From assembly GCA_964448005.1 (NCBI GenBank), contig CAYUUW010000013.1, positions 1-35,435 on the forward strand: DNA of 35,435 nt, read 5' to 3'. This document shows positions 9,352 through 30,193 of the stretch, piece after piece. The position numbers were made by a program, and so were the translations under genes. The notes under the pieces were generated by a model that saw only the letters and a program-made list of their open reading frames with translations, was not told the DNA's origin and ran no database searches. Source of the DNA: an uncultured Candidatus Peribacteria bacterium (GTDB lineage: Bacteria; Patescibacteriota; Gracilibacteria; UM-FILTER-43-11). How positions within the stretch are numbered: position 1 is the stretch's first letter; every line of letters starts with the position of its first letter.

Positions 9352-10038
9352 ATGAAAAAATCCATTCTCGCCGGCCTTGCCGGCCTTGCTCTGCTGGTCG
9401 GCTGCCAAGCTTCTCCAGAAAAAGAAATCGAAACCTTTTACCAAGGCTCCCCGGAGCAGTTCGCCAATAACCCCCAAGCCGCCATGCCCGATTTCCGCCA
9501 AGCCGCCATGCCCGAAAAGGGCGAAACCATCGCCGTGATCCAGACCCGCCTGGGGGAAATCCGCGTTCGTCTCTTTCCTCAATTCGCCCCCAAGACCGTC
9601 GAGAATTTCGTGGGATTGGCCAAAAAAGGCTACTACGATGGCATCGTTTTCCACCGGGTGATCCCGGGCTTCATGGTGCAAGGTGGGGATCCTACCGGGA
9701 CCGGAGCCGGAGGCGAGAGCCTGTGGGGGGGCAAATTCCAGGACGAGATCTCCATGAACCTCGCCAACATCGCCGGATCCCTCTCCATGGCCAATGCCGG
9801 CAAAGACACGAACGGATCGCAGTTCTTCATCAACCAGGTGGACAACCTTTACCTGAACGGCTATGAAGGCGGAAAAATGAAAGATTGCTCCCGATACGGG
9901 GTCTCGTGCCACACGGTGTTCGGCCAGGTGTTCCAGGGCATGGATGTGGTGGCCAAGATCGCCGAGGAGGAGCGCGATGCCAGGGATAGGCCTGTGGAGG
10001 ATGTGGTGATGGAGAAGGTCACCATAGAAGCCTATTAG
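9352..10038 (+). CDS. cyclophilin-type peptidyl-prolyl cis-trans isomerase, lipoprotein
   Basis: Lipobox LALLVGC. Cyclophilin motifs GYYDGIVFHRVIPGFMVQGGDPTGTG and SLSMANAGKDTNGSQFFI. Confidence 0.9.
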   Translation: MKKSILAGLAGLALLVGCQASPEKEIETFYQGSPEQFANNPQAAMPDFRQAAMPEKGETIAVIQTRLGEIRVRLFPQFAPKTVENFVGLAKKGYYDGIVFHRVIPGFMVQGGDPTGTGAGGESLWGGKFQDEISMNLANIAGSLSMANAGKDTNGSQFFINQVDNLYLNGYEGGKMKDCSRYGVSCHTVFGQVFQGMDVVAKIAEEERDARDRPVEDVVMEKVTIEAY

Positions 10039-13128: not shown

Positions 13129-13770
13129 ATGTCTCAAAAATTGCTTGAACACCTCAAGAAGAAATACGGAGCAAAGGCCGTGATTTTGCATGGCTCGCGC
13201 GCAAAGGGAAAAGAGCGAGCAAGAAGTGATTGGGATGTATTTATTTTTGCCAACAAGCCACTGTCTATTCAATCTGAGTTCTTCGAGGGGCTCCATCTTG
13301 ATATAACACCTGTCCATTTGCCTATAAAGACCGATGACTTCGTGGACACCTATGGCCAGCTGCTAGGCTCAGCCAAGGTTTTATTGGATACCAAAGATAA
13401 AATCGCTTCAAGAATCTTAAGAGAAGTTAAAAAGTTTTGGTCTCATGGCAAAAAGCTGAAAACCAGTGAGATGAGCAATATCCGCAATTATATGGAGCGC
13501 GTACTGTGGAGAATGGAAGACAATGCAAAAGAGCATGGCGTATTCTTCTATCATTTATCCAATTTTTACCAAGGGGCCCTGCTGTATTGGTTTCAAGCAA
13601 AAGGCAAATGGCCCGTTCCTGTTTACGAAGCGTTGCCAATCATTAAAAAGGAGCAAAAAACTTACTACAAGCACTTGCACGTGCTAAATGGCAGTGCTTC
13701 CAATGCAAAGAAAATTACCTCTGCTCAAAAGTTGTTTGAGCTGCTCTTTTCTAAAAAAAGCAAAAAATAA
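13129..13770 (+). CDS. nucleotidyltransferase-domain protein (Pol-beta-fold NTase with helical C-terminal extension)
   Basis: LHGSRAKGKERARSDWDVFIF is the GS..(x)n..D.D minimal NTase motif. About 120 further helical residues. Low GC (line 13381-13440 = 17/60). Confidence 0.7.
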   Translation: MSQKLLEHLKKKYGAKAVILHGSRAKGKERARSDWDVFIFANKPLSIQSEFFEGLHLDITPVHLPIKTDDFVDTYGQLLGSAKVLLDTKDKIASRILREVKKFWSHGKKLKTSEMSNIRNYMERVLWRMEDNAKEHGVFFYHLSNFYQGALLYWFQAKGKWPVPVYEALPIIKKEQKTYYKHLHVLNGSASNAKKITSAQKLFELLFSKKSKK

Positions 13771-19844: not shown

Positions 19845-19852
19845 CCAGCACT

Positions 19853-19889
19853 GTACCCCATGATGGCCAATGCTCTTTTCAGAAAAGAG
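19853..19889. repeat. left copy of a 37-bp imperfect direct repeat (34/37) shared with 30107-30143
   Basis: gtaccccatgatggccaatgctcttttcagaaaagag versus gtatcccatgatggccaatacccttttcagaaaagag. Weaker similarity with indels extends to ~19836 / ~30093. Confidence 0.9.
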
Positions 19890-20259
19890 ATGAGATAAGC
19901 GCAAACGCCAAAGTAACGAGGGTCGCTTGAATGGCGGAAAAAGCTGTCTGTATGGCGACAAACCCCGAAAGGGATGTGGCATTCTGCTTTCCTGCTTCGG
20001 CAAATACCATAAAGCTGATCAATAGCAAGAATAGGCCTAGTCCGAACATCCAAGGATTTTCCACAAGGGGGTAGATATACGCAAAGACTATTCCCTGAAG
20101 GAGCATGGCAGAAAGGCCAAAGGAGAATCTGGGCTTTTCGATATTCGAATATATTGCAAGTTTTTTGTAATACTCCTTGAAAAGGAAAACGTGCCAAAAA
20201 ACGCCAAGGGCAAAGGAAGCAACCAGATAGGCCAGCAAATGCAAATAGAACGATGTCAT
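19879..20259 (-). CDS. small integral membrane protein (DUF1761-like, tentative)
   Basis: 126-aa ORF with four hydrophobic helices (LLAYLVASFALGVFWHVFLF...). Low GC. 27 nt downstream of the 67-aa ORF on the same strand. Confidence 0.55.
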   Translation of the reverse strand: MTSFYLHLLAYLVASFALGVFWHVFLFKEYYKKLAIYSNIEKPRFSFGLSAMLLQGIVFAYIYPLVENPWMFGLGLFLLLISFMVFAEAGKQNATSLSGFVAIQTAFSAIQATLVTLAFALISSLF

Positions 20260-20286: not shown

Positions 20287-20490
20287 TTAGGCGGCTTCGA
20301 AGCGCGTCTTATTTTCAGACATCCACTTTTGCCGTTCCGCTTTTTTCTCCTCGTCGGAAAGGCCTGCCTTGCCTTTCATGATTTCAGCGTGGGCTTGCGT
20401 GTAATGAGGAGCAAGAGCCCTCATCCACCCTTCAAAGGTTTCGGCTTTCTCTTCGTGGTCGCACAGGTCGCATTTTAGCGTTTTCATCAT
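20287..20490 (-). CDS. small soluble protein (DUF1059-like, tentative)
   Basis: 67 aa. KTLKCDLCDHEEKAETFEGWMRALAPHYTQAH resembles the K.L.C.D.GCDF...AET.EE....H pattern of DUF1059. 50 nt downstream of hsdR on the same strand. Confidence 0.45.
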   Translation of the reverse strand: MMKTLKCDLCDHEEKAETFEGWMRALAPHYTQAHAEIMKGKAGLSDEEKKAERQKWMSENKTRFEAA

Positions 20491-20540
20491 TTTTAGTTAA
20501 ATGGTAAGTTTTTCTGCCTTAAGTCATGGCGCCTAGGGGC

Positions 20541-23500
20541 TCACAGCCTGCCTCCAGAAATATCGAAAAATCGCTCGAAGAAGCTCGTCAATTTATCCAG
20601 CACGCTCTCGCGCTTCTTGCTGCGCTCGCCACCGGGTGAAAAGCGGGATACGGGCGGCAGTATTTTGGAGATAGCCGTGCCGGTGGGTGAAACGCTTCCA
20701 TTTCGGAAGGCGTCTCTTGCAAATTTATAGGCCTCCTCGCGGTCCAGGTTTTCTTCCTCGATGATCCGCTCCAGCTCATCCATTTTTTTCTTCTCCACGA
20801 ATTTCTGCCAATCGTCGTCGACCACCGAATTCATATCCAGCGAAGCAATGAACTGGTTGATGAGGTCTTTTTTGTTTCGCAGCTCCATGCTTGAATCGAT
20901 GGCCTTGTTGATCTCCGCCAGAAGCTCCTTGTTTTTGACATGGTCTTCGTGATAGGTTTTGACGAGCGCCAGAACGTAGTCGATGTTGATCTCTATCTGC
21001 TTGATCAGCTCCATTTCAAACACAATATCCTCGTTGATGTTTTCCTTTTCGGCGTCGCCTCCTTTTCGGAATTCATTGTAGAGGTCGATGTAGGCGCTGT
21101 GATAATTCTGGATGTCGCGCTCGCTTAAGATTTGATTGCCGGCAAATTCGTCGAAGGTCGCCAGGATATTGCGCACCCTCAAAATGCCGCCGTACAATCG
21201 AATGAAGTCTTTCTGGTTCTGCTCGCCAAGGATGGGTTCGCCCACAGGGAATTTTTCCAAAAGCTCCTTGACCAGGCTTTCGTACCCACGGACCTCCTTT
21301 CCCTCTTCTTCATAGCCGCCGTAGTACTCTTTGTAGGATTTCAAAAGCACGATGCCGCTGGCTTCCTTGTCGCCAAACAGGGCGATGGATTCATTGGTGG
21401 CTTTTTCCAAATTCCGGAAGCACACAATGTTCCCAAAGGCCTTCACGGCGTTCAGAATGCGGTTGGTGCGGGAAAAGGCCTGAAGCAAGCCATGCAATCG
21501 CAGATTCTTATCCACCCACAAGGTGTTGAGCGTGGTCGCGTCGAAGCCGGTCAAAAACATATTCACCACCAGAAGAAGATCCACTTCCCGGTTTTTCACT
21601 CGCTCGCTGACATCCTTGTAGTAATTCTGAAATTTATCGGAGGAGGTGTCGTAGGACGTGCCAAACATGGCGTTGTAGTCGGCTATGGCGCTTTCAAGAA
21701 AATCCCTTGAGCCGGCATCCAAGCCGCTGGTGTCTTCCGGATTTTCATCCGCCATTCCGTCGCCTTCCGCTTCATTGGCTCCAAAGCTGAAAATCGTGGC
21801 CACTTTCAGCTTCTTGTCGCTCGGCAGATCGGCTAGTTGCTTCTTGAATTCGGCATAGTACTTTTTGGCCGTCTCGATGGAAGAAACGGCGAAGATGGAG
21901 TTGAATCCGGATAAGCGTATTTTTTCCATGATCCTATCAACCTTTGACCTATCCTTTGCCGTTACAATCTCTTTAACATTCTTGGTAACAGCATGCGTAA
22001 AAAACTTATTATTTCGCTTCGTTTTCTGATTAAAGTGTTCAATAATATACTCTACGATATTTGCCAGGCGTTCGGGTGCGGCCAATGCCGCCTCCCGATC
22101 AATGTCGCTGACTTTCTTGTCTTCAATGTCTTCGGCTTCACGAACCGTGGAAACATAGTCCACTTTGAACGGCAGAACGTTCTTGTCGGCAATGGCATCC
22201 ACAATGGTGTAGGTGTGAAGCTTGGCCCCAAAGGCCTGTTCGGTGGTTCTGAAATCGGGGCGACCGCCGGAAGAAGAATTCTTGGCGAAAATGGGGGTGC
22301 CGGTGAAGCCAAAGAGATGGTAATTTTTGAAGGCCTTGGCAATGGCGGCGTGCATGTCGCCAAACTGGGAGCGGTGGCATTCATCGAAAATCAGCACGAT
22401 GTGGCCGTCTAAAACAGTGTGTCCGGCATTGCGGCCTATGAATCGGTCGAGTTTTTGAATGGTGGTGACAATGATTCGCGCGTTTGGGTCCTCAAGCTGG
22501 CGCTTGAGTAGGGCCGTGCTGGCGTTGCTGTTGGCCGCGCCTTTTTCGAACTTGTCGTATTCGCGCATGGTCTGGTAGTCCAGGTCCTTGCGGTCCACGA
22601 CGAACAATACTTTATCCACATAGGGCAGCTTGCTGGCGAGCTGGGCGGTTTTGAAGCTGGTTAAGGTTTTTCCCGATCCGGTGGTGTGCCACACGTATCC
22701 GCCTGCCTCTACCGTGCCCAGTTTTTTGTAGTTGGTGCTGACTTGGATTTTGCTGAGGATCTTTTCCGTGGCCACGATCTGATAGGGGCGCATGACCAGT
22801 AGCTGCTTGTCGGCGGTGAGCACGCAGTAGCGGGTGAGAATGTTCAAAAGGGTGTGCTTGGCGAAAAATGTCTTGCCGAAATCCACCAGGTCGGCAATGG
22901 GCTTGTTGGCCGCATCCGCCCACCAGCTGGTGAATTCGAAGCTGCTGCTGGAGCGTTTTCCTTTTTTTGCCGCGCCTTCCGCGCCTTCCTTGATGTGCGC
23001 GGCGCGGGTGGTGTTGCTGTAGTACTTGGTGTGGGTGCCGTTGGAGATGATGAAGAGCTGTATGTATTCAAACAATCCCGATCCGGCCCAAAAGCTTTCC
23101 CGCTGGTAGCGATTGATTTGATTGAAGGCTTCTTGAATGGCGATTCCGCGACGTTTGAGTTCGATGTGCACCAGGGGGAGGCCGTTGACGAGCACGGTTG
23201 CGTCGTATCGGTTGGCGCGTTGGCCGTCGTCGGTCGCGTACTGGTTGATGACCTGCAAACAGTTTTCGTGGATGTTGTCTTTTTTGAGCAGATAGACGTT
23301 TTTCACGGTGCCGTCGTCGCGGGTCAGGTTCTTGATGTAGTCCTCCTGGACGGTCGCGGCCTTCTCGGCAATGCCTTGATTGGGGTTGGCGATCTCATTC
23401 TTGAAAAAGCGATCCCATTCCTCGTTGGTGAACATGAAGCCGTTGAGTTCTTCCAGCTGCACGCGCAGGTTTATTTCCAGATCGGTTTCGGAGGTGATGG

Positions 23501-23684
23501 GCAGGTATTCATAGGCTTGGGATTCCAATTGCTGAATAAAGGCCTTTTCCAGCTCGGCTTCGCTTTGGTAGTGCGAGGCGCGTTTTTGGTCCGGCGTGTA
23601 CTGGGCCACGACGGTGCTCCCCGCCTCGCCGGCAGGCAGGTGTGAATTTTCGGCGACGAGATTGTAGGCTTTATTTCTTGGCAT
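20541..23684 (-). CDS. hsdR: type I restriction enzyme R subunit
   Basis: 1047 aa. N-terminal nuclease region; SF2 motor motifs I (HTTGSGKTLTSF) and II (IFDECHRSQ); long helical C-terminal region. Size and layout like EcoR124I-type (type IC) HsdR. Confidence 0.95.
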   Translation of the reverse strand: MPRNKAYNLVAENSHLPAGEAGSTVVAQYTPDQKRASHYQSEAELEKAFIQQLESQAYEYLPITSETDLEINLRVQLEELNGFMFTNEEWDRFFKNEIANPNQGIAEKAATVQEDYIKNLTRDDGTVKNVYLLKKDNIHENCLQVINQYATDDGQRANRYDATVLVNGLPLVHIELKRRGIAIQEAFNQINRYQRESFWAGSGLFEYIQLFIISNGTHTKYYSNTTRAAHIKEGAEGAAKKGKRSSSSFEFTSWWADAANKPIADLVDFGKTFFAKHTLLNILTRYCVLTADKQLLVMRPYQIVATEKILSKIQVSTNYKKLGTVEAGGYVWHTTGSGKTLTSFKTAQLASKLPYVDKVLFVVDRKDLDYQTMREYDKFEKGAANSNASTALLKRQLEDPNARIIVTTIQKLDRFIGRNAGHTVLDGHIVLIFDECHRSQFGDMHAAIAKAFKNYHLFGFTGTPIFAKNSSSGGRPDFRTTEQAFGAKLHTYTIVDAIADKNVLPFKVDYVSTVREAEDIEDKKVSDIDREAALAAPERLANIVEYIIEHFNQKTKRNNKFFTHAVTKNVKEIVTAKDRSKVDRIMEKIRLSGFNSIFAVSSIETAKKYYAEFKKQLADLPSDKKLKVATIFSFGANEAEGDGMADENPEDTSGLDAGSRDFLESAIADYNAMFGTSYDTSSDKFQNYYKDVSERVKNREVDLLLVVNMFLTGFDATTLNTLWVDKNLRLHGLLQAFSRTNRILNAVKAFGNIVCFRNLEKATNESIALFGDKEASGIVLLKSYKEYYGGYEEEGKEVRGYESLVKELLEKFPVGEPILGEQNQKDFIRLYGGILRVRNILATFDEFAGNQILSERDIQNYHSAYIDLYNEFRKGGDAEKENINEDIVFEMELIKQIEINIDYVLALVKTYHEDHVKNKELLAEINKAIDSSMELRNKKDLINQFIASLDMNSVVDDDWQKFVEKKKMDELERIIEEENLDREEAYKFARDAFRNGSVSPTGTAISKILPPVSRFSPGGERSKKRESVLDKLTSFFERFFDISGGRL

Positions 23685-23687
23685 AGT

Positions 23688-24494
23688 TTATTTTAATAGC
23701 TTTTTATTCTCAACGTCTTGCAATATTTTTATCTGCTGAATGGCTATTTGATTGAGTTTGATCAGTCTTTCGCTTTGAGCCATCTTTTCACCTATAAAAA
23801 CAGCATTCAAGTTTTCCATATTGGAAAGGCAAATGAGTTCATTAATGTTGGCATAGTCACGTATGTTTCCTTTTAAATCAGGACTGGCTTCGCGCCACTC
23901 TTTGGCGGTCATGCCAAACAGCGCTACATTCAATACATCTGCTTCGTTGGCGTACACGTGATTGATTTGTTTCTTTGTAAGCTCGGCAGGAATGAGGTTT
24001 TGTTTAATGGCATCGGTATGTATTCGATAGTTGATTTTTGCCAGTTCTCGTTTGGCACTCCAGCCGATTTGCTTTTGTTCTGCTTCTTTGAGGCGTTGGA
24101 ACTCTTTGATAAAATACAATTCAAATTCGATAGAAATCCAAGCAGCGAATTTAAAGGCAATATCCTTGTGAGCAAATGTTCCTCCATAGCGACCTGATTT
24201 AGAAATAATTCCTTTAGCATTGGTAGTTTCGATCCACTTTTGAGGAGATAGGGTAAATGCATTGAGTCCCGCTTGTTTTCTAAACCCCTCGAATTCGATG
24301 GGTTTAAATTCGGAATTATATAATGTTTCCCATACCCCCAAATATTCGATGGTATTTCGGTTTCTCATCCAATTTGAAATTGTCGCAGTTGGTTCATCGC
24401 TCTTGTATTTTGCAATATCTGTCAGAGAAATATAATCTTTTCCCTGAAAAGTAAGGATTGAAATCTCTGTTTCTTGTACGGTTATTTTCGGCAT
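23688..24494 (-). CDS. KilA-N domain-containing protein
   Basis: EISILTFQGKDYISLTDIAKYK...ISNWMRNRNTIEYLGVWETLYNSEFKPIEFEGF...SGRYGGTFAHKDIAFKFAAWISIEFELYFIKEFQRLKE matches the widespread bacterial KilA-N family almost block for block. Its stop is 3 nt from the hsdR ATG. Confidence 0.85.
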   Translation of the reverse strand: MPKITVQETEISILTFQGKDYISLTDIAKYKSDEPTATISNWMRNRNTIEYLGVWETLYNSEFKPIEFEGFRKQAGLNAFTLSPQKWIETTNAKGIISKSGRYGGTFAHKDIAFKFAAWISIEFELYFIKEFQRLKEAEQKQIGWSAKRELAKINYRIHTDAIKQNLIPAELTKKQINHVYANEADVLNVALFGMTAKEWREASPDLKGNIRDYANINELICLSNMENLNAVFIGEKMAQSERLIKLNQIAIQQIKILQDVENKKLLK

Positions 24495-24549
24495 AGTGGT
24501 CTATGGGTTGCAATAAGGGGGGTTGAATTCGGCCCTCTAAGTTGATTTT

Positions 24550-24578
24550 TATTTATGGCGAATTCGCCATAATTTAAA
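24550..24578 (-). promoter_or_regulatory. perfect 20-bp palindrome (24553-24572) inside a promoter-like spacer upstream of the KilA-N gene
   Basis: ttatggcgaattcgccataa is a perfect palindrome. On the minus strand it fills the 17-nt spacer between TTTAAA (-35-like) and TAAATA (-10-like). About 60 nt upstream of the KilA-N ATG. Confidence 0.35.
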
Positions 24579-24589
24579 CATTTTCTTTG

Positions 24590-24607
24590 ATCATAGTTTA
24601 AGACTTT
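24590..24607. repeat. junction motif copy 3 (18-bp direct repeat of 27388-27405)
   Basis: atcatagtttaagacttt is identical at both sites. On the minus strand it reads AAAGTCTTAAACTATGAT, i.e. the last codons K-S-stop of RhuM followed by ACT ATG. Confidence 0.9.
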
Positions 24608-25596
24608 TTCTTTTTTGCGACCTTTTTCTCTATGGATTTTATGGCTTCCAAATAGTCTTTTTCAACAGGGGATAAGGTTTTGACCTGGTATTTGCGATAC
24701 TCTTTCCCGGCTTTTTCTATGGCTTTTTCGTGGCTTACTTTACCCGCATTGGTCAATTTTCCTTTGCCATAGATTTCTGAAAATTTATCCAGTTCCGCCA
24801 CCCAGTCACTCATTTTCATCGGTTCTTGGTCTTGGGCTTTTATTTCCGCCAGATCAAAAAAGGCGGATACCAGACGATTGAGGCGATAGAGCTCATCTTT
24901 GGTCAGGTAGTTTTTGGCAATGGTCGCGTCGGCTTTTTTAGGCACTGTTCCGGAGAAATTGGTCATCCCCATGAATTCTTTTTCGCTGTCGGCACGGGAA
25001 AAAATCAACTCTGCGGCAGTCTGCTGGTTGGTGGCGTAATGCAATTTGTTCTGCACGGTTTTGAAAAACAAAACAGATTCTTTGCTTTTGGAGTCGTAAT
25101 CAATGCTGGTGGCGTACAGATCCAGCACTTGTCGATACAGGACCTTTTCGCTGCTGCGGATGTCGCGGATTCTCTCCAGTAGCTCTTTCCAGTAATTGCC
25201 ACCGGCTGTTCCTTTGAGCCTTTCATCGTCCATAGCAAAACCTTTGATGATGTATTCTTTTAGTCTCTGTGTCGCCCAAATTCTAAATTGCGTGCCACGG
25301 AGGGAATTGACGCGGTAGCCGACGGAGATGATGGCATCGAGGTTATAGTGTTTTACGTGATAATTCTTTCCGTCGGAGGCAGTTACCGAGAAATCCTCGG
25401 CAACTGATTTTTCATTTAGTTCTCGGCTTTTGAATATATTTTTCAGATGAAGACTGATGTTGTCGGAAGTGCAGTCAAAAAGCTGCGCCATTGATTTTTG
25501 CGAAAGCCAGATGGTCTCGCCTTTCATCAGGGTATCCACGGATATTTTTCCGTCTTCGGTTTGATAGATGATGATTTGATTGTCTTGCATCTTCAT
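24598..25596 (-). CDS. RhuM family (virulence protein RhuM-like) protein
   Basis: IIIYQTEDGKISVDTLMKGETIWLSQKSMAQLFDCTSDNISLHLKNIF...HYNLDAIISVGYRVNSLRGTQFRIWATQRLKEYIIKGFAMDDERLK is the canonical RhuM N-terminal block. Confidence 0.85.
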   Translation of the reverse strand: MKMQDNQIIIYQTEDGKISVDTLMKGETIWLSQKSMAQLFDCTSDNISLHLKNIFKSRELNEKSVAEDFSVTASDGKNYHVKHYNLDAIISVGYRVNSLRGTQFRIWATQRLKEYIIKGFAMDDERLKGTAGGNYWKELLERIRDIRSSEKVLYRQVLDLYATSIDYDSKSKESVLFFKTVQNKLHYATNQQTAAELIFSRADSEKEFMGMTNFSGTVPKKADATIAKNYLTKDELYRLNRLVSAFFDLAEIKAQDQEPMKMSDWVAELDKFSEIYGKGKLTNAGKVSHEKAIEKAGKEYRKYQVKTLSPVEKDYLEAIKSIEKKVAKKKKS

Positions 25597-25620
25597 TATG
25601 ATTAAATCATTCGCCCTTTT

Positions 25621-25649
25621 AGTTTAGTAAACATTTGTTTACTGGTCAA
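25621..25649 (-). promoter_or_regulatory. candidate internal promoter with an 18-bp palindromic operator upstream of the RhuM gene
   Basis: The minus strand reads TTGACC (25649-25644), a 17-nt spacer agtaaacaaatgtttac, then TAAACT (25626-25621). The spacer is essentially the palindrome agtaaaca-tt-tgtttact (25626-25643). About 30 nt upstream of the ATG at 25596. Confidence 0.4.
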
Positions 25650-25671
25650 CGGTGGGTCATGCTTAAAATGA

Positions 25672-26925
25672 TCAGGCTCGACCCTTGAGGGGCTTGAAGG
25701 TTAAAAGCTTGTTTCGGTAGTATTCGTATTGTTGCCTTCTCGCCTTGATTTCGGCGGGAAGCCCCCCTGTCATTCCGGACCCCGATCCGGAATCTCCTCC
25801 ATTGACCAGGGCATCGAATTTGTCGAGGATGGCGACGATGCGGGTTTGTTCAGCGAGGGGTGGGATGGGGATTTTTATTTTTGAAATTTCTCCCAAGTTG
25901 ATTTTTATAGGTGTCGCATTTACTAAGGTTCTCTTATATAGTTCAGTTTTACCAACTCCACTTTCAATAATAAATTTCAGGTATCTTGTCAAAACTTGTT
26001 TATGGTCTGGTCGGATGAGTGTTAGCGTAACATAATAAGCCAGCGGTTTATCATTTTCAACAACCGTACAAGTCCCAATGTCACCGATTCTTGTCATAAA
26101 CAAATCATCTTTTTTCGGCTTGTATTTGTATTTTTCAAAATCAGCAACTGATATGCATTTCTTTGTAGCATAAAGATTTTTAATATTCTCAACACTGACA
26201 AACGGAACGCCTTCTGTTGTATATTTGGGTGTCTGGTGTGTGCCATCATAAGTTTCTGCAACTTCCCCCAAACTCTTCCACTCCACATCATCCCCGAACG
26301 TTAAAAGCTCATCCCTATAATACTCATACTGCCTCTTTCTTGCCTCCAGCTCCGCCTCCAGCTCCGCCTCCAGCTCCGCCTCCAGCTCCGTAAATGTATC
26401 GAGGATGTTGACAATTTCTTGTTGGATGGGGAGGGGCGGGAGGGGAATTTTGAATTTTTTCACCTCAGCATCAGAAATTGCTGGATAACTCGCCCCTTTC
26501 TGTGTGTTCTCAACATAGTCAAAAAAATCTGAGGAGCCAATTAAATGATAGATAAAATTAGTTAACACTTTATTTGTATCTGGTCGTAGAACACAAAAAC
26601 CAGTGCTACAGATCTGCCCATCGAAATTTGAATCAATAATGCTAAAACGTTTCAATGTTGGTCGCGTTGTCCCAAAGATAACATCACCAGTTTTTACAAT
26701 TTGCTGCGCTCTGCTTGGGGCTGTTTCTGCATTTATAGTCTGCGTTTCTGATATTTTATGGGTAATGCGGTTAACAGAAGTTAAATCAATATATTGGAAA
26801 GTTTGGCTACCGACTGATTGCCATTTGATATTTTCCTTAGGAAGCAAGATGTCACCCAATTCCTTAAACTCCACCCCATTGGGGCAGAGTTCTGAGATTA
26901 ATAGGTCGATTTTGGGTTGGTGCAT
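25672..26925 (-). CDS. hsdS: type I restriction-modification specificity subunit
   Basis: 417 aa. Two low-GC target-recognition domains separated by the conserved helices ILDTFTELEAELEAELEAELEARKRQYEYYRDELLTF (central) and ILDKFDALVNGG...GLPAEIKARRQQYEYYRNKLLTF (distal). Confidence 0.95.
   Translation of the reverse strand: MHQPKIDLLISELCPNGVEFKELGDILLPKENIKWQSVGSQTFQYIDLTSVNRITHKISETQTINAETAPSRAQQIVKTGDVIFGTTRPTLKRFSIIDSNFDGQICSTGFCVLRPDTNKVLTNFIYHLIGSSDFFDYVENTQKGASYPAISDAEVKKFKIPLPPLPIQQEIVNILDTFTELEAELEAELEAELEARKRQYEYYRDELLTFGDDVEWKSLGEVAETYDGTHQTPKYTTEGVPFVSVENIKNLYATKKCISVADFEKYKYKPKKDDLFMTRIGDIGTCTVVENDKPLAYYVTLTLIRPDHKQVLTRYLKFIIESGVGKTELYKRTLVNATPIKINLGEISKIKIPIPPLAEQTRIVAILDKFDALVNGGDSGSGSGMTGGLPAEIKARRQQYEYYRNKLLTFKPLKGRA
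26342..26389 (-). repeat. 4 perfect tandem copies of a 12-bp unit (gcctccagctcc), in frame, encoding (ELEA)x4 in the HsdS central conserved region
   Basis: Counted base by base: 26342-26353, 26354-26365, 26366-26377 and 26378-26389 are identical. Confidence 0.95.
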
Positions 26926-26926
26926 T

Positions 26927-26942
26927 GTCTTAAACTATGATT
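26927..26942. repeat. junction motif copy 2 (inverted; perfect 16-bp inverted repeat partner of 27387-27402)
   Basis: gtcttaaactatgatt; its reverse complement aatcatagtttaagac is exactly 27387-27402. Contains the GxxExxY stop codon and ends 1 nt before the hsdS ATG. Confidence 0.9.
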
Positions 26943-27375
26943 GAAGTGATTTTGTGATGGGCTGTGATTTTTTTGTCTTCATGAGCCGCTTGAATTCCAT
27001 GCTTTTGGAGCCAAAGTTGATCAGGAGCCCGATCTCCAGCTTGTAGGCCTCTAAATAATTGATCGCCTGGGCCCAGTGGACATCTTCGAGCCTTATGACC
27101 GCCTTGATTTCAACCATCACCTTCCCCTCAACAAAAAAATCCACCCTTCTTGTGCCGATCCGCGCTCCTTTGTACTCCACGGGCATTTCGTGCTCCCTGG
27201 AAAAGGCAAGGCCATGGTCCTCCAGCTCGATCGCCAAAGCCCTCTGATAGATCACTTCCTGAAAGCCATTCCCCAGAGTTTTATGCACCTCCATGGCGGC
27301 GCCAATGATCCTGGCCGTTAGGTCGGAATGCTTGTATTGATCGTTGATGAAGGTGTTTTGAATCATAGTTTTCAT
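26935..27375 (-). CDS. GxxExxY protein (PD-(D/E)XK-fold family, also known from 23S rRNA intervening sequences)
   Basis: AAMEVHKTLGNGFQEVIYQRALAIELEDHGLAFSREHEMPVEYKGARIGTRRVDFFVEGKVMVEIKAV...HWAQAINYLEAYKLEIGLLINFG carries the G..E..Y motif and the D..(x)n..E.K nuclease-fold core. Confidence 0.9.
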   Translation of the reverse strand: MKTMIQNTFINDQYKHSDLTARIIGAAMEVHKTLGNGFQEVIYQRALAIELEDHGLAFSREHEMPVEYKGARIGTRRVDFFVEGKVMVEIKAVIRLEDVHWAQAINYLEAYKLEIGLLINFGSKSMEFKRLMKTKKSQPITKSLQS

Positions 27376-27386
27376 TTCATCACAAA

Positions 27387-27405
27387 AATCATAGTTTAAG
27401 ACTTT
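27387..27405. repeat. junction motif copy 1 (inverted-repeat partner of 26927-26942; 18-bp direct repeat of 24590-24607)
   Basis: aatcatagtttaagacttt. On the minus strand it supplies the last codons K-S-stop of hsdM followed by ACT ATG. Confidence 0.9.
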
Positions 27406-28964
27406 CCCTCAATCTCCCCCACAATCCCATCAATCGCCGTCCTCAGCTCATTCTGCCGCGCCACAATCTTCGCGATTTTGGCGTTCAATTCCTTAATATC
27501 CACCACCTCGCGAGTGTCTTCCCCCACCACATAGCTGGAAACCGCAATATTGTAGTCATTTTCCTCAATCGTCTTGTTGTTCACCAGTTTCGCGAAATAA
27601 TCCATGTCCTCGCGCTCGGCGAAGGCCCCTAGAATCTTTTTGCGATTCGCCTCGCTCAGCTTGTTTTTGTTCCCGCCCCGGACGAATTCCTTCGAGGCAT
27701 CGATGAAAAGGGTTTTGTTGTCCTTCTTGCTCTTCTTCAGCACAATGATGCACGTCGCAATCGTGGTCCCAAAAAAGAGGTCCGGCGGAAGCTGGATCAC
27801 GGTATCGATGTAATTGTTGTCGATCAGGTATTTGCGGATCTTCTGCTCCGCGCCGCCGCGGTAGAGGACACCCGGAAATTCAACAATCGCCGCTGTTCCG
27901 CTAGTAGAAAGCCAGGAAAGCATGTGCATCGCAAAAGCCAGATCCGCCTTGCTCTTGGGCGCCAGCACGCCCGCCGGGGAAAAACGCGGATCATTGATCA
28001 AAAGCGGATTGGCGTCGCCCTCCCATTTGATGGAATACGGCGGATTGGACACAATCGCATCAAACGGCTCGTCGTCCCAATGCTTGGGCTCCGTCAGCGT
28101 GTCGCCATGCTCAATATTAAAATGATTGTAGTTGATGTCATGCAAAAACATATTGATGCGGCACAGGTTGTAGATGGTCAGGCTGATCTCCTGGCCGTAA
28201 AAGCCCTGCCGAACATTTTCTTTGCCGAGCACTTTGGCGAATTTGAGAAGCAGCGAGCCCGAACCGCAGGCCGGGTCGTACACCTTGTTCACTTCCTTTT
28301 TGCCCACCGTCGTGATCTCCGCCAAAAGCTCGCTCACTTCTTGCGGGGTAAAAAACTCACCGCCTGATTTGCCGGCCGTGGAGGCGTACATGGTCATCAG
28401 GTACTCATAGGCGTCGCCAAAGGCGTCTATGGTGCTGTCGGCGTATTCGCCCAGGCGAAGGCCGCCAATGGCTTCCATGAGCTTGGCGAGCTTTTTGTTC
28501 CGATTCTCCACCGTGCCTCCCAGCTTATTCGAGTTCACGTCCAGGTCGTCGAATAGGCCCTTCAGGTCCTGTTCGCTTTCCGTGCCCTTGGCGGAATGCT
28601 CGATGTGGCGGAAAGCGGCCGCCAGGGTTTCGTTGAGGTTTGTATCGTTCCTTGCGTTTTTCAAGACGTTTGCAAAAAGCTCGCTCGGTAGAATAAAAAA
28701 CCCCTTTTCGATGACGGTTTCTTTACGAGCCAATTCAGCAGTTTTGTTATCTAGTTTGGCATAATCAAAATCTGGTCCTTCGTGTTTTGTGTCATTGAGA
28801 TGGCTGGTGAGGTTTTCGCTGATGAACCGGTAAAAAAGCATCCCCAGCACATATTGCTTAAAATCCCAGCCGTCCACGGAGCCCCGCAGATCGTTGGCGA
28901 TCTGCCAAATGGCCCGATGGAGCTCGGCGCGTTCCTGTTCCTTGCTTAGGTTCAAATGGGTCAT
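27396..28964 (-). CDS. hsdM: type I restriction-modification N6-adenine DNA methyltransferase subunit
   Basis: 522 aa. HsdM N-terminal helical domain, SAM motif I (YDPACGSGSLLL), catalytic motif IV (IVSNPPYSIKW). Confidence 0.95.
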   Translation of the reverse strand: MTHLNLSKEQERAELHRAIWQIANDLRGSVDGWDFKQYVLGMLFYRFISENLTSHLNDTKHEGPDFDYAKLDNKTAELARKETVIEKGFFILPSELFANVLKNARNDTNLNETLAAAFRHIEHSAKGTESEQDLKGLFDDLDVNSNKLGGTVENRNKKLAKLMEAIGGLRLGEYADSTIDAFGDAYEYLMTMYASTAGKSGGEFFTPQEVSELLAEITTVGKKEVNKVYDPACGSGSLLLKFAKVLGKENVRQGFYGQEISLTIYNLCRINMFLHDINYNHFNIEHGDTLTEPKHWDDEPFDAIVSNPPYSIKWEGDANPLLINDPRFSPAGVLAPKSKADLAFAMHMLSWLSTSGTAAIVEFPGVLYRGGAEQKIRKYLIDNNYIDTVIQLPPDLFFGTTIATCIIVLKKSKKDNKTLFIDASKEFVRGGNKNKLSEANRKKILGAFAEREDMDYFAKLVNNKTIEENDYNIAVSSYVVGEDTREVVDIKELNAKIAKIVARQNELRTAIDGIVGEIEGKS

Positions 28965-28969
28965 AAGGA

Positions 28970-29179
28970 TTATTTGATTAAATCATCTACGCCCACACCC
29001 AGGGCCTTGGCGATTTTGCTCAGCGTGTCGATGGTGGGATTGCTATTGGCTCCGCTTTCAATGGTCACCACCGTATTCAAAGAAAGGTCAGCCAATTTAG
29101 AGAGGCGGTCTTGCGAGATGCCGTGCTCCGCCCGCAGTCGCTTCATGTTCTTTCCAATGGTGTTTTCAGAAGGGGACAT
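28970..29179 (-). CDS. XRE-family helix-turn-helix transcriptional regulator
   Basis: 69 aa. IGKNMKRLRAEHGISQDRLSKLADLSLNTVVTIESGANSNPTIDTLSKIAKALGV is a canonical Cro/C1-type HTH. Its stop is 5 nt from the hsdM ATG. Confidence 0.85.
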   Translation of the reverse strand: MSPSENTIGKNMKRLRAEHGISQDRLSKLADLSLNTVVTIESGANSNPTIDTLSKIAKALGVGVDDLIK

Positions 29180-29397
29180 ACAGTATAATGGATGGGTTTG
29201 ATTGTAGGGTACTCCTTTGAAATTCCTCCGTCAAAAAAGTCCTTCCGCCAATAGAAGGAACCTCCCAACGGAAAGGAGTAACCCCTTACGCTGGACCAAT
29301 CGTGTTGGTTGCTCCAGCTTGGGGTATATATATCCAGGCAAAAGTTTTTGATATACTAGGCCTAGTGAATTGTGGCGGGGCAGTTAATTTGACAATT

Positions 29398-29420
29398 TAA
29401 ATTATATATTATATAATTTA
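29398..29420. promoter_or_regulatory. 23-bp AT-only palindrome in the ~400-bp AT-rich non-coding region upstream of the HTH-hsdM operon
   Basis: taaattatata-t-tatataattta: two perfect 11-bp arms around one central base. About 220 nt upstream of the HTH ATG (29179). Function unknown. Confidence 0.25.
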
Positions 29421-29591
29421 TACTAGCGCTGTTCTTTGAAAAATAATTCGCAAAAAGGTGGAGTGAATGGAACGGTTTCGTTGTTTCTGTGCTAGTCCTT
29501 TTCTTTTTGTTCTTTAGGAATATAAATAGAGAGTGAGAAGAAAGGGGCTTCCACCAAACAACAAACAACCGGAAGCCAAAGAGGTGCCAGT

Positions 29592-29831: not shown

Positions 29832-30019
29832 ACCACGCCCGAGCCTAGGCCCGAGGCGAGAAGGGTGCTCATAGCCAGTTGTCAGAGGTGGCGGAGGAAA
29901 CTTACATGGCTTACATTCACTCCCTCACCTTTTTGCGGATTATTCTTCCCCCGCTTACGCTGGAGCAATCTTGCCCGCCTTCCGAAGCAGTACGGCGGAC
30001 AGGCAGATTGGTTCAGCGG

Positions 30020-30193
30020 CTATTCTCCAAACAAGGCTGCGACTCCGCCGACAATTATTCCGCCGCCGAAAAGAGCAGCCATCAAAAGGATTTGCCCAAT
30101 CGCTCCGTATCCCATGATGGCCAATACCCTTTTCAGAAAAGAGTCGGAATTGAGCCACCCTTTGTAGCTGTAGGTCTCTTCGTTTTCCGTCAT
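30020..30193 (-). CDS. 57-aa small membrane protein
   Basis: Internal ATG at 30193 of the composite ORF 30020..30733 gives MTENEETYSYKGWLNSDSFLKRVLAIMGYGAIGQILLMAALFGGGIIVGGVAALFGE. Upstream of this Met the long ORF is Arg/Pro-rich junk that overlaps the better 148-aa frame. Contains the right copy of the 37-bp repeat. Confidence 0.5.
   Translation of the reverse strand: MTENEETYSYKGWLNSDSFLKRVLAIMGYGAIGQILLMAALFGGGIIVGGVAALFGE
30107..30143. repeat. right copy of the 37-bp imperfect direct repeat (partner of 19853-19889)
   Basis: Same orientation as the left copy, 34/37 identical. Here it encodes SFLKRVLAIMGY inside the 57-aa ORF. Confidence 0.9.

Follow-up and report, generated by a model that had tools for sequence, protein, structure and literature searches.

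Embedding of foreign genes in the operons of type I restriction-modification (R-M) systems is already documented. In the prr locus the gene for the anticodon nuclease PrrC lies inside the type I operon EcoprrI, and Payne et al. 2024 (bioRxiv 10.1101/2024.01.29.577857) catalogued 17,432 genes embedded in bacteriophage exclusion (BREX), defence island system associated with R-M (DISARM) and type I R-M loci, naming 145 'phage defence candidates' by 'guilt-by-embedding'. Their study is the source of the PADLOC models PDC-S05 and PDC-S22, and the RhuM family appears in it as FAM_00003; a survey of inversions (PMC9881135) found RhuM annotations enriched beside hsdS genes. Here we describe a stretch of 35,435 nucleotides ('the window') from an uncultured Candidatus Peribacteria bacterium (GenBank assembly GCA_964448005.1, contig CAYUUW010000013.1, positions 1 to 35,435 of the forward strand), in which an operon of the type IC kind carries three genes foreign to R-M, encoding a GxxExxY, a RhuM and a KilA-N protein. 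We favour, with moderate confidence, the reading that the gene junctions of this operon are landing sites for three independent single-gene modules. A preliminary description of the locus regarded the function of this trio inside hsd operons as not established; this has been overtaken by the two PADLOC candidates and by a phage assay of a RhuM gene (bioRxiv 10.1101/2024.09.26.614923). As first described, the locus is one more case of a type I R-M operon collecting extra defence genes, and the most useful results of the present analysis are a small repeat-bounded element around the GxxExxY gene and a hairpin in the KilA-N gene.

The operon comprises the following genes, given in the order of transcription with lengths in amino acids (aa); the first encodes a helix-turn-helix (HTH) protein and the third is an open reading frame (ORF) of the GxxExxY family:

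28970-29179, minus strand: HTH gene, 69 aa; HTH_3 E 9e-14, PADLOC Control_protein E 7e-10; ends 5 nt before hsdM
27396-28964, minus strand: hsdM, type IC methyltransferase subunit; TIGR00497, 759 bits
26935-27375, minus strand: GxxExxY ORF; PDDEXK_3 / TIGR04256, E 6e-42
25672-26925, minus strand: hsdS, specificity subunit; Methylase_S, two domains
24598-25596, minus strand: RhuM gene, 332 aa; Virulence_RhuM PF13310 E 3e-105, PADLOC PDC-S05 E 3e-151
23688-24494, minus strand: KilA-N gene, 268 aa; KilA-N domain at residues 6-137, E 1e-21; PADLOC PDC-S22 E 1e-132; phrog_2657 over the full length
20541-23684, minus strand: hsdR, type IC restriction/translocase subunit; HSDR_N, SWI2_SNF2, T1R_D3 and EcoR124_C; begins 3 nt after the KilA-N gene

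An ORF check of the window bore out the nine minus-strand ORFs of the preliminary description (the seven above, followed by a 67-aa and a 126-aa ORF) in their order and coordinates, and the eight gaps between them, at 5, 20, 9, 75, 103, 3, 50 and 27 nt, are all exact. Family scans agree with the labels HTH, HsdM, GxxExxY, HsdS, RhuM, KilA-N and HsdR. As with the guilt-by-embedding genes, RhuM and KilA-N match their PADLOC models nearly end to end (residues 1-329 of 332 for RhuM against PDC-S05, E 3e-151; residues 3-266 of 268 for KilA-N against PDC-S22, E 1e-132) and lie on the same strand among hsd genes; unlike them, GxxExxY has no PADLOC model, two candidates and a putative mobile element share one operon, and RhuM stands after hsdS.

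The R-M core itself is of a well-studied kind. HsdR is similar over its full length to EcoR124I HsdR (2w00; 858 bits) and carries the EcoR124-type C-terminal domain (PF12008, E 4e-68), and HsdM scores 629 bits against the M subunit of EcoR124II (7bst_D) and only 55 bits against that of EcoKI. The system is type IC because HsdR and HsdM are so closely related to EcoR124I/II, and the earlier label 'type IC-like' thus stands. The translations show the catalytic motifs (D…ELK and DECH for HsdR, DPACGSG and NPPY for HsdM), and, as judged from its sequence, the set HTH-hsdM-hsdS-hsdR is an intact EcoR124-type R-M system. The central region of EcoR124 HsdS holds TAEL repeats, and the number of copies of the equivalent hsdS repeat determines how long the spacer in the recognition site of EcoR124I/II is. 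The window hsdS likewise has a short tandem repeat in its central conserved region, a perfect 12-bp unit in 4.1 copies (26342-26390, minus strand) that encodes (ELEA)4; the same four copies are found in hsdS of locus L138 (L-numbers are labels of the fetched comparison loci). Given the role of copy number in EcoR124I/II, the repeat may be a slippage-prone specificity switch. The window operon differs from EcoR124I/II in its upstream HTH gene and in the three foreign genes among the hsd genes.

To see how ordinary such cargo is, we turn to related operons. Scanning metagenomes with HsdM yielded 80 sister loci (HsdM 69-89% identical), 45 of which run complete from hsdM to hsdR. When an embedded gene is counted as an extra same-strand gene of at least 100 aa between hsdM and hsdR, 16 of the complete operons hold hsdS alone and 29 hold at least one embedded gene; the number per operon ranges from 0 to 4, with at least three in 3 operons, and the three of the window stand at the upper end of this range, though they are not unique. 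Of 78 sister loci, 18 have an embedded RhuM gene, each time directly after hsdM and with overlapping or 1-4-nt junctions. The other cargo comprises an OLD-like ATPase of ~488 aa (six loci), PDC-S46 (four), SoFic (three), the Bro-N and Fic protein PDC-S04 (three), the Bro-N protein PDC-S13 (three), KilA-N in two loci with the order hsdM-KilA-N-hsdS-hsdR, and, in addition, an IS200-like transposase, an AriAB-like ATPase and proteins of the ORF6N and Pua-like kinds; in sister operon L124 the equivalent slot holds PrrC (PrrC model E 6e-94). Because this cargo is so diverse, the slots between hsd genes appear to be generic landing sites.

The window departs from the sister norm only by the number of its embedded genes and by the position of RhuM after hsdS. 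Judged from the compared sequences, the three genes are not a unit and were acquired independently, since sisters hold them singly, in other orders and in other slots. The coordinated trio of the preliminary description is therefore not borne out: order, position and combination vary freely among loci, and composition differs between genes. The GC content at third codon positions (GC3) is 0.69 for hsdM and hsdR, 0.66 for GxxExxY, 0.63 for the HTH gene, 0.53 for RhuM, 0.42 for hsdS and 0.37 for KilA-N; by this measure KilA-N and hsdS look like recent arrivals from a donor of lower GC.

The GxxExxY gene is the first of the two subjects on which the analysis yielded most. It is bounded by inverted repeats, one end of which recurs alone further along the operon:

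26927-27402, minus strand: GxxExxY mini-element, 476 bp; inverted repeats at both ends of the ORF
27402-27379, minus strand: left inverted repeat, GTCTTAAACTATGATTTTTGTGAT; holds the hsdM stop codon
26950-26927, minus strand: right inverted repeat, ATCACTTCAATCATAGTTTAAGAC; holds the GxxExxY stop codon and ends 1 nt before the hsdS ATG
24589-24604, minus strand: solitary copy of the element's left end; overlaps the RhuM stop codon; motif with 1 mismatch

The two arms are 24 nt long and 88% complementary, and the 16-nt core of the repeat has three copies in the window against 0.1 expected. The solitary copy makes the junction at the RhuM stop codon (24590-24607) identical over 18 nt (100%) to that at the hsdM stop codon (27388-27405). 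Taken together, the unusual position of RhuM and this duplicated junction suggest a rearrangement between repeat copies, which would explain both.

The repeats accompany the gene. Across the fetched loci, 2.05 Mb in all, the motif GTCTnnAACTATGAT is confined to those with a GxxExxY gene, bar four single one-mismatch matches elsewhere, which we take as chance. Inverted GTCTnnAACTATGAT repeats flank the ORF in every close homologue sampled, nine loci that include a type I operon (L066), a PadR/FtsX operon (L085), a site beside dnaX (L166), HTH-headed methyltransferase-S systems (L167 and L168), a type I operon with a reverse transcriptase (L169), and L170 and L171. Seven of nine independent contexts of close homologues are R-M operons; the remaining two, PadR/FtsX and dnaX, are not. 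The arms covary among loci (TTAAAC in the window, TGAAC in L066, GTTTAAAC in L166, TTGAAC in L167), and in L007, whose homologue is 34-40% identical, different inverted repeats of 33 nt are found. The residues E40, D79, E89 and K91 of the protein are invariant. In the type I operon of L169 (5214-15538), which adjoins McrBC, GxxExxY, the reverse transcriptase (RVT_1, 509 aa) and a DUF6119 gene lie between hsdS and hsdR.

Copies of the repeats also occur without the gene. Two type IC operons that possess GxxExxY, L083 and L084, contain ORF-less units of ~100-115 bp between genes: the left arm of these units, 42-48 nt long, agrees at 87% with the initial 48 nt of the window element, the MKTMI codons included, and there is likewise agreement in the right arm. 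In L084 there are 20 motif copies over all four gene junctions, and in L083 the units lie in the gap between hsdS and GxxExxY. One unit folds at -36.9 kcal/mol (z = -8.5), and a second hairpin has z = -7.0. In L167 (7649-7978) and L168 (7610-7978) the RhuM gene is cut at residue ~100, exactly at the left end of the GxxExxY element. At the element ends there are several ATGA motifs, along with stop codons in two or three reading frames, so that an insertion between cistrons ends the upstream gene cleanly, and we infer that it would have little polar effect.

The anatomy of the unit is better explained as that of an autonomous mini transposon with derivatives like miniature inverted-repeat transposable elements (MITEs), for which movement is predicted, than as that of the accessory nuclease proposed in the preliminary description. 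In this proposal a mini mobile element of ~0.48 kb would have GxxExxY as its gene, a PD-(D/E)XK ORF between terminal inverted repeats. Its ORF-less hairpin derivatives of ~100 bp would accumulate in other hsd operons, with the solitary end after RhuM as the counterpart in the window; the nuclease may mobilise the repeats, and the dispersed repeats may provide homology for the shuffling of cassettes between operons. Like MITEs with their parents, repetitive extragenic palindromes (REP) with their associated tyrosine transposases (RAYT), Correia elements and enterobacterial repetitive intergenic consensus (ERIC) sequences, the units are short inter-cistron hairpin repeats with a protein-coding version between inverted copies. 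The protein, in contrast, has a PD-(D/E)XK fold of ~145 aa and is not a DDE or Y1 transposase, the GxxExxY ORF starts and stops at the repeats, and the repeats are conserved across phyla. The family is listed as an uncharacterised PD-(D/E)XK family (PMC3424549); we found nothing else on it in the literature that we searched, and no description of its repeat-bounded element. If true, the element gives a function to a large orphan protein family and, with its ORF-less copies at gene junctions, offers a concrete and testable account of how genes come to be embedded, a pattern by which defence systems are now being discovered. No pair of filled and empty sites could be matched, though sister operons do have plain hsdM-hsdS junctions. 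We rejected the idea that the element is typically phage-borne: 65 exact motif matches in viral contigs are about the chance estimate, and one of them is beside a GxxExxY gene.

The same repeats could instead act as RNA, as REP/ERIC-like or intervening-sequence-like stems, with GxxExxY a passenger in the loop; RNase III processing or stabilisation at the stems would then set the expression of hsdM and hsdS versus that of hsdR. The hairpins are indeed very stable, the units always lie in operon orientation and only between cistrons, and the arms change together as base-paired stems do. Nevertheless, we think this account unlikely, as the repeats accompany the ORF into unrelated operons and phyla, the ORF retains an invariant nuclease active site, the RhuM gene is truncated right at the element end, and Rfam has no family that matches the hairpin units (mir-1538, at E 0.015, is far below threshold and taken as chance). 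An action of the repeats at the RNA level and a mobile element bounded by them are, moreover, not exclusive.

The KilA-N family is very large and exceptionally well conserved. The family search returned more than 8000 matches, of which the best 120 are 77-89% identical and come from Bacteroidota, Clostridia and other phyla; across phyla, homologues are 67-89% identical. Among 78 species genomes, six have the gene between hsd genes or immediately ahead of hsdR and one has it just behind hsdR, whereas by a rough estimate a random gene would lie beside hsd genes in far below 1% of genomes. The slots differ, with x for a further gene: hsdR-x-hsdS-KilA-N-hsdM (L008), hsdM-KilA-N-hsdS-x-x-hsdR (L033), hsdM-KilA-N-x-x-hsdR (L064), hsdM-KilA-N-hsdS-RhuM-x-hsdR (L065), KilA-N-hsdR (L003) and after hsdR (L035), and they differ again in L113 and L116. 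In L066, from Polaribacter, the same trio recurs in another order, hsdM-KilA-N-hsdS-GxxExxY-RhuM-hsdR, within a type I operon whose HsdM is only 28% identical. The remaining 71 of 78 loci (~90%) are away from hsd genes and have no neighbour in common. Many KilA-N loci have a TAnnTTTG motif of the Bacteroidota type just upstream, which suggests that many solitary KilA-N genes may have their own promoter.

Phages carry the gene as well. In Staphylococcus phage EW a full-length homologue lies between the repressor/ImmA module and the integrase, and Streptococcus phage satellites also carry full-length homologues. Residues 123-235 are 34% identical (E 1e-13) to the C-terminal half of the Rha proteins of phage SPN9CC and P22-like phages, which have an N-terminal Phage_pRha domain in place of KilA-N. 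From these contexts and the Rha-like C-terminus, we regard the protein as a phage-type, two-domain DNA-binding protein that is mostly solitary. We also considered that KilA-N genes sit in transposon-like mobile flanks, and rejected this, as similarity reaches no further than ~80 nt upstream, and even so far it is limited to related loci.

The KilA-N gene contains one palindrome and is preceded by another:

24282-24305, minus strand: intragenic palindrome AAACCCATCGAATTCGAGGGGTTT; KilA-N codons 64-71, KPIEFEGF; from the inverted-repeat scan
24547-24578, minus strand: upstream palindrome with CGAATTCG apex, contains ATGGCGAATTCGCCAT; 53-84 nt before the KilA-N start; conserved with L011

In 61 homologues from 61 species, a mean of 9.5 of 10 arm positions of the intragenic palindrome are complementary, as compared to 5.5 with random synonymous codons. 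Perfect pairing is kept even as the encoded protein changes: KPLEFEGF is encoded by CCCCTCGAATTCGAGGGG, KPIEFDRF by CCTATCGAATTCGATAGG, KPVEFDGF by CCCGTCGAATTCGACGGG and KPIEFDGF by CCCATCGAATTCGATGGG. Over a helix of 13 pairs 95.6% of the cells pair, falling to 62-68% when the partner is shifted by one column, and the two helix pairs with changes on both sides account for 25 cells versus 7.1 ± 1.9 in shuffles (0 of 500 shuffles as high). The structure is also tied to this gene: of the 55 perfect hairpins with a GAATTC apex in 1.24 Mb of KilA-N loci, 50 are the intragenic site, and four of the other five are found at most 150 nt ahead of a KilA-N gene, the window's ATGGCGAATTCGCCAT among them. 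By this covariation, selection clearly acts on a nucleic-acid structure tied to the KilA-N gene, a rare case of such a structure overriding protein sequence. Upstream of KilA-N in L030 (~9890-9975) and L039 (~9900-9965) there are two or three consecutive hairpins with CGAATTCG apices, one of which nearly copies the intragenic palindrome.

A prophage protein offers a possible use for such a structure. BstA, an abortive-infection protein of prophages, has a KilA-N-like domain, and its gene itself carries the cognate DNA element aba, which spans 63 bp at the start of the gene and contains direct CCCGCC repeats (bioRxiv 10.1101/2020.07.13.199331). By analogy, BstA is the nearest studied counterpart of the KilA-N protein. 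Both have two domains with KilA-N at the N-terminus, the separate C-terminal domain of the window protein being the one shared with Rha; the phage homologue adjoins a repressor module, and a conserved nucleic-acid element lies in and just upstream of the gene. The element itself is unlike aba, namely a 24-26-nt palindrome at codons 64-71. We detected no similarity of the KilA-N protein to BstA, in that PDC-S22 is its sole PADLOC match, no direct comparison with the BstA sequence having been made. The KilA-N protein may thus be a stand-alone DNA-binding exclusion or abortive-infection protein of phage origin, Rha/BstA-like, and the hairpin in and upstream of its gene may be its cognate cis element, serving auto-regulation or a self-immunity like that of BstA and aba. 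By the same analogy, the hairpin is an experimental handle on the candidate defence family PDC-S22.

For RhuM an experimental precedent is available. In a study of cold seeps, one PDC-S05 gene expressed in E. coli B lowered plating of T7 and T5 ~1000-fold and of T4 ~10-fold (bioRxiv 10.1101/2024.09.26.614923). By extension from this one homologue, the window RhuM would be an autonomous single-gene anti-phage module. The 75-nt gap between hsdS and RhuM (25597-25671) ends with a small palindrome, AATGATTTAATCAT, just ahead of the RhuM ATG; it is similar to the ATGATT/AATCAT sub-repeats in the arms of the GxxExxY element and may have survived as a decayed remnant. RhuM and KilA-N cluster even outside R-M loci, as the following two arrangements show. 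In L074 (1631-4250) three tandem paralogues of ~280 aa, which share only the N-terminal ~125 residues of RhuM, lie just upstream of a KilA-N gene, and in L071 (4996-12404) a KilA-N gene lies between two RhuM genes with no hsd genes nearby. A common N-terminal fold of RhuM and KilA-N was considered and rejected (profile-profile probability 0.4%; BLASTP of RhuM against an ORF6N protein empty), and a sequence search of PDB chains gave no real matches for RhuM, KilA-N or GxxExxY.

Overall, the three embedded genes would ride on operon transcription and horizontal mobility, adding layers of function without needing the R-M complex. More tentatively, and as a possibility to which we would give less than even weight, GxxExxY (TIGR04256 / PDDEXK_3) may define a class of undescribed autonomous mobile elements of ~0.5 kb with ~100-bp MITE-like derivatives, which insert at cistron boundaries in R-M and other operons without disrupting them and supply homology for the shuffling of defence cassettes among operons, and the PDC-S22 hairpin may be the protein's own recognition or self-immunity site.

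Several points weigh against this picture of independent modules, one of them mobile. For the element, we observed neither transposition nor an empty site, and no target duplication that is unambiguous: the TTAA found at both ends of the window element is, as a flank, just a possibility. The sampled GxxExxY loci are all at least 58% identical to the query, with the exception of L007, and the sample therefore leans to one lineage; the repeats could also act at the RNA level instead of as transposon ends. For KilA-N, the window copy of the intragenic palindrome has one mismatch, and our literature search turned up no member of PDC-S22 that had been tested for phage defence. The AlphaFold2 models of KilA-N and RhuM are poor, with a predicted local distance difference test (pLDDT) score of 54 and 64, respectively, and support no mechanism; Foldseek searches of PDB and BFVD gave nothing significant, the top matches being winged-helix proteins and DdrC at E 0.02 or worse. 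Finally, some room for a functional link to restriction is left by the strong enrichment of all three genes in R-M loci and by the recurrence of the trio in L066.

Such a link was the proposal of the preliminary description: the three proteins would be coupled to the R-M complex and stay latent until anti-restriction disables it, as PrrC does with EcoprrI, or would be regulators. The enrichment that this model predicted is real (RhuM in 18 of 78 sister loci, KilA-N in 7 of 78 genomes, GxxExxY in 7 of 9 contexts), and the recurrence of the trio in the unrelated operon of L066, the PrrC gene in a like slot of L124, and the constant place of RhuM after hsdM in sisters, where overlapping or 1-4-nt junctions suggest translational coupling, all speak for it. 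Against these stand the ~90% of KilA-N homologues in unrelated contexts, phages or satellites, often with what may be their own promoter, the GxxExxY genes in a PadR/FtsX operon and beside dnaX, the varying position and order of the embedded genes, the 16 of 45 sister operons that do without any, and the RhuM gene that protects E. coli as a stand-alone clone. The comparison with the prr locus is equally mixed: both have a non-hsd gene inside a type I operon, and a PrrC homologue occurs in a sister, whereas PrrC is almost exclusive to type I loci and neither KilA-N (7 of 78 beside hsd genes) nor GxxExxY (2 of 9 contexts outside R-M) is, and RhuM, KilA-N and GxxExxY lack the ABC-ATPase-anticodon-nuclease architecture of PrrC and match no PrrC model. 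We therefore judge obligate coupling of the PrrC type to be improbable. What endures of the earlier interpretation is that the genes are genuine, enriched residents of R-M loci; their embedding was already documented, they are independent of one another, and nothing points to a dependence on R-M.

That RhuM and KilA-N are regulators or addiction modules of mobile elements (Rha- or antirepressor-like), tolerated in R-M operons and not defence genes, accords with the matches of KilA-N to phage 'transcriptional regulator' families, its Rha-like C-terminus, the want of a tested PDC-S22 member in the literature we searched and the IS200-like transposase in one sister operon, but it is improbable too, considering the 10- to 1000-fold lower plating of T4, T5 and T7 with RhuM/PDC-S05, the precedent of BstA for a KilA-N protein as abortive-infection effector, and the known defence genes (PrrC, OLD, SoFic, AriAB-like) that mostly hold the same slots.

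The operon is headed by the HTH gene, which has its own conserved leader:

29180-29262, minus strand: conserved leader of the HTH gene; GC-rich hairpin and T-run (29240-29259), then a TTGAC motif

In the three closest sister operons (L086, L089 and L092) hsdM is preceded, at a distance of 2-4 nt, by this HTH gene, with 66-86% identity; with L086 and L089 the leader can also be aligned, from the hairpin and T-run through the TTGAC motif as far as the ATG. An HTH gene of some kind occupies this position in only ~12 of 68 sister loci, with several families among these. The match to the PADLOC Control_protein model (E 7e-10) is at the level of a generic XRE domain. By analogy with type II controller (C) proteins, which are likewise the products of a small XRE-type HTH gene that immediately precedes the R-M genes and is probably transcribed together with them, the HTH protein is probably the transcriptional controller of the operon, repressing its promoter; unlike them, it heads a type I operon, and in its conserved leader we saw no clear operator repeats of the C-box kind. 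Further upstream, a 23-nt inverted repeat (29438-29460 and 29926-29948, 91% complementary) encloses ~510 bp, which may be another small inserted element; an additional 23-nt direct repeat is found at 29282-29304 and 29951-29973, and a perfect TTGACA-17-TATAAT lies on the plus strand at 29389-29417, in an AT-rich stretch near the 23-nt repeats.

Downstream of hsdR, the two small ORFs and a pair of direct repeats complete the segment:

20287-20490, minus strand: 67-aa ORF; family scans without match
19879-20259, minus strand: 126-aa ORF; family scans without match
19848-19889, unstranded: 42-nt direct repeat, left copy; 88% identical to the right copy
30102-30143, unstranded: 42-nt direct repeat, right copy; inside a 57-codon ORF

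The preliminary description listed both ORFs among its nine same-strand genes. Neither ORF has a family match in Pfam, NCBIfam or PADLOC, and both are absent 3' of hsdR in all 45 complete sister operons; for this last reason we regard them as neighbours and not as demonstrated members. The coordinates given for the feature were right, except that a span starting at 20287 leaves out the 126-aa ORF named in its text. The 42-nt repeats, whose likeness is limited to about 42 nt, bracket 10.25 kb of lower GC that contains the operon and the two ORFs, and they may be the boundaries of an island; we looked for an integrase or a tRNA at the ends of this segment and found none, nor is there an integrase inside it. 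The flanking genes are ordinary (DUF2207, MgtC, a YgaP-like protein and Glu/Gln-tRNA synthetase). Elsewhere in the window, a low-GC patch at 13129-13770 (~0.46, against a background of 0.57-0.67) encodes a Polbeta/NTP_transf_2 nucleotidyltransferase, which may be a toxin-antitoxin-type or otherwise imported gene. GC along the window varies from 0.40 to 0.67.

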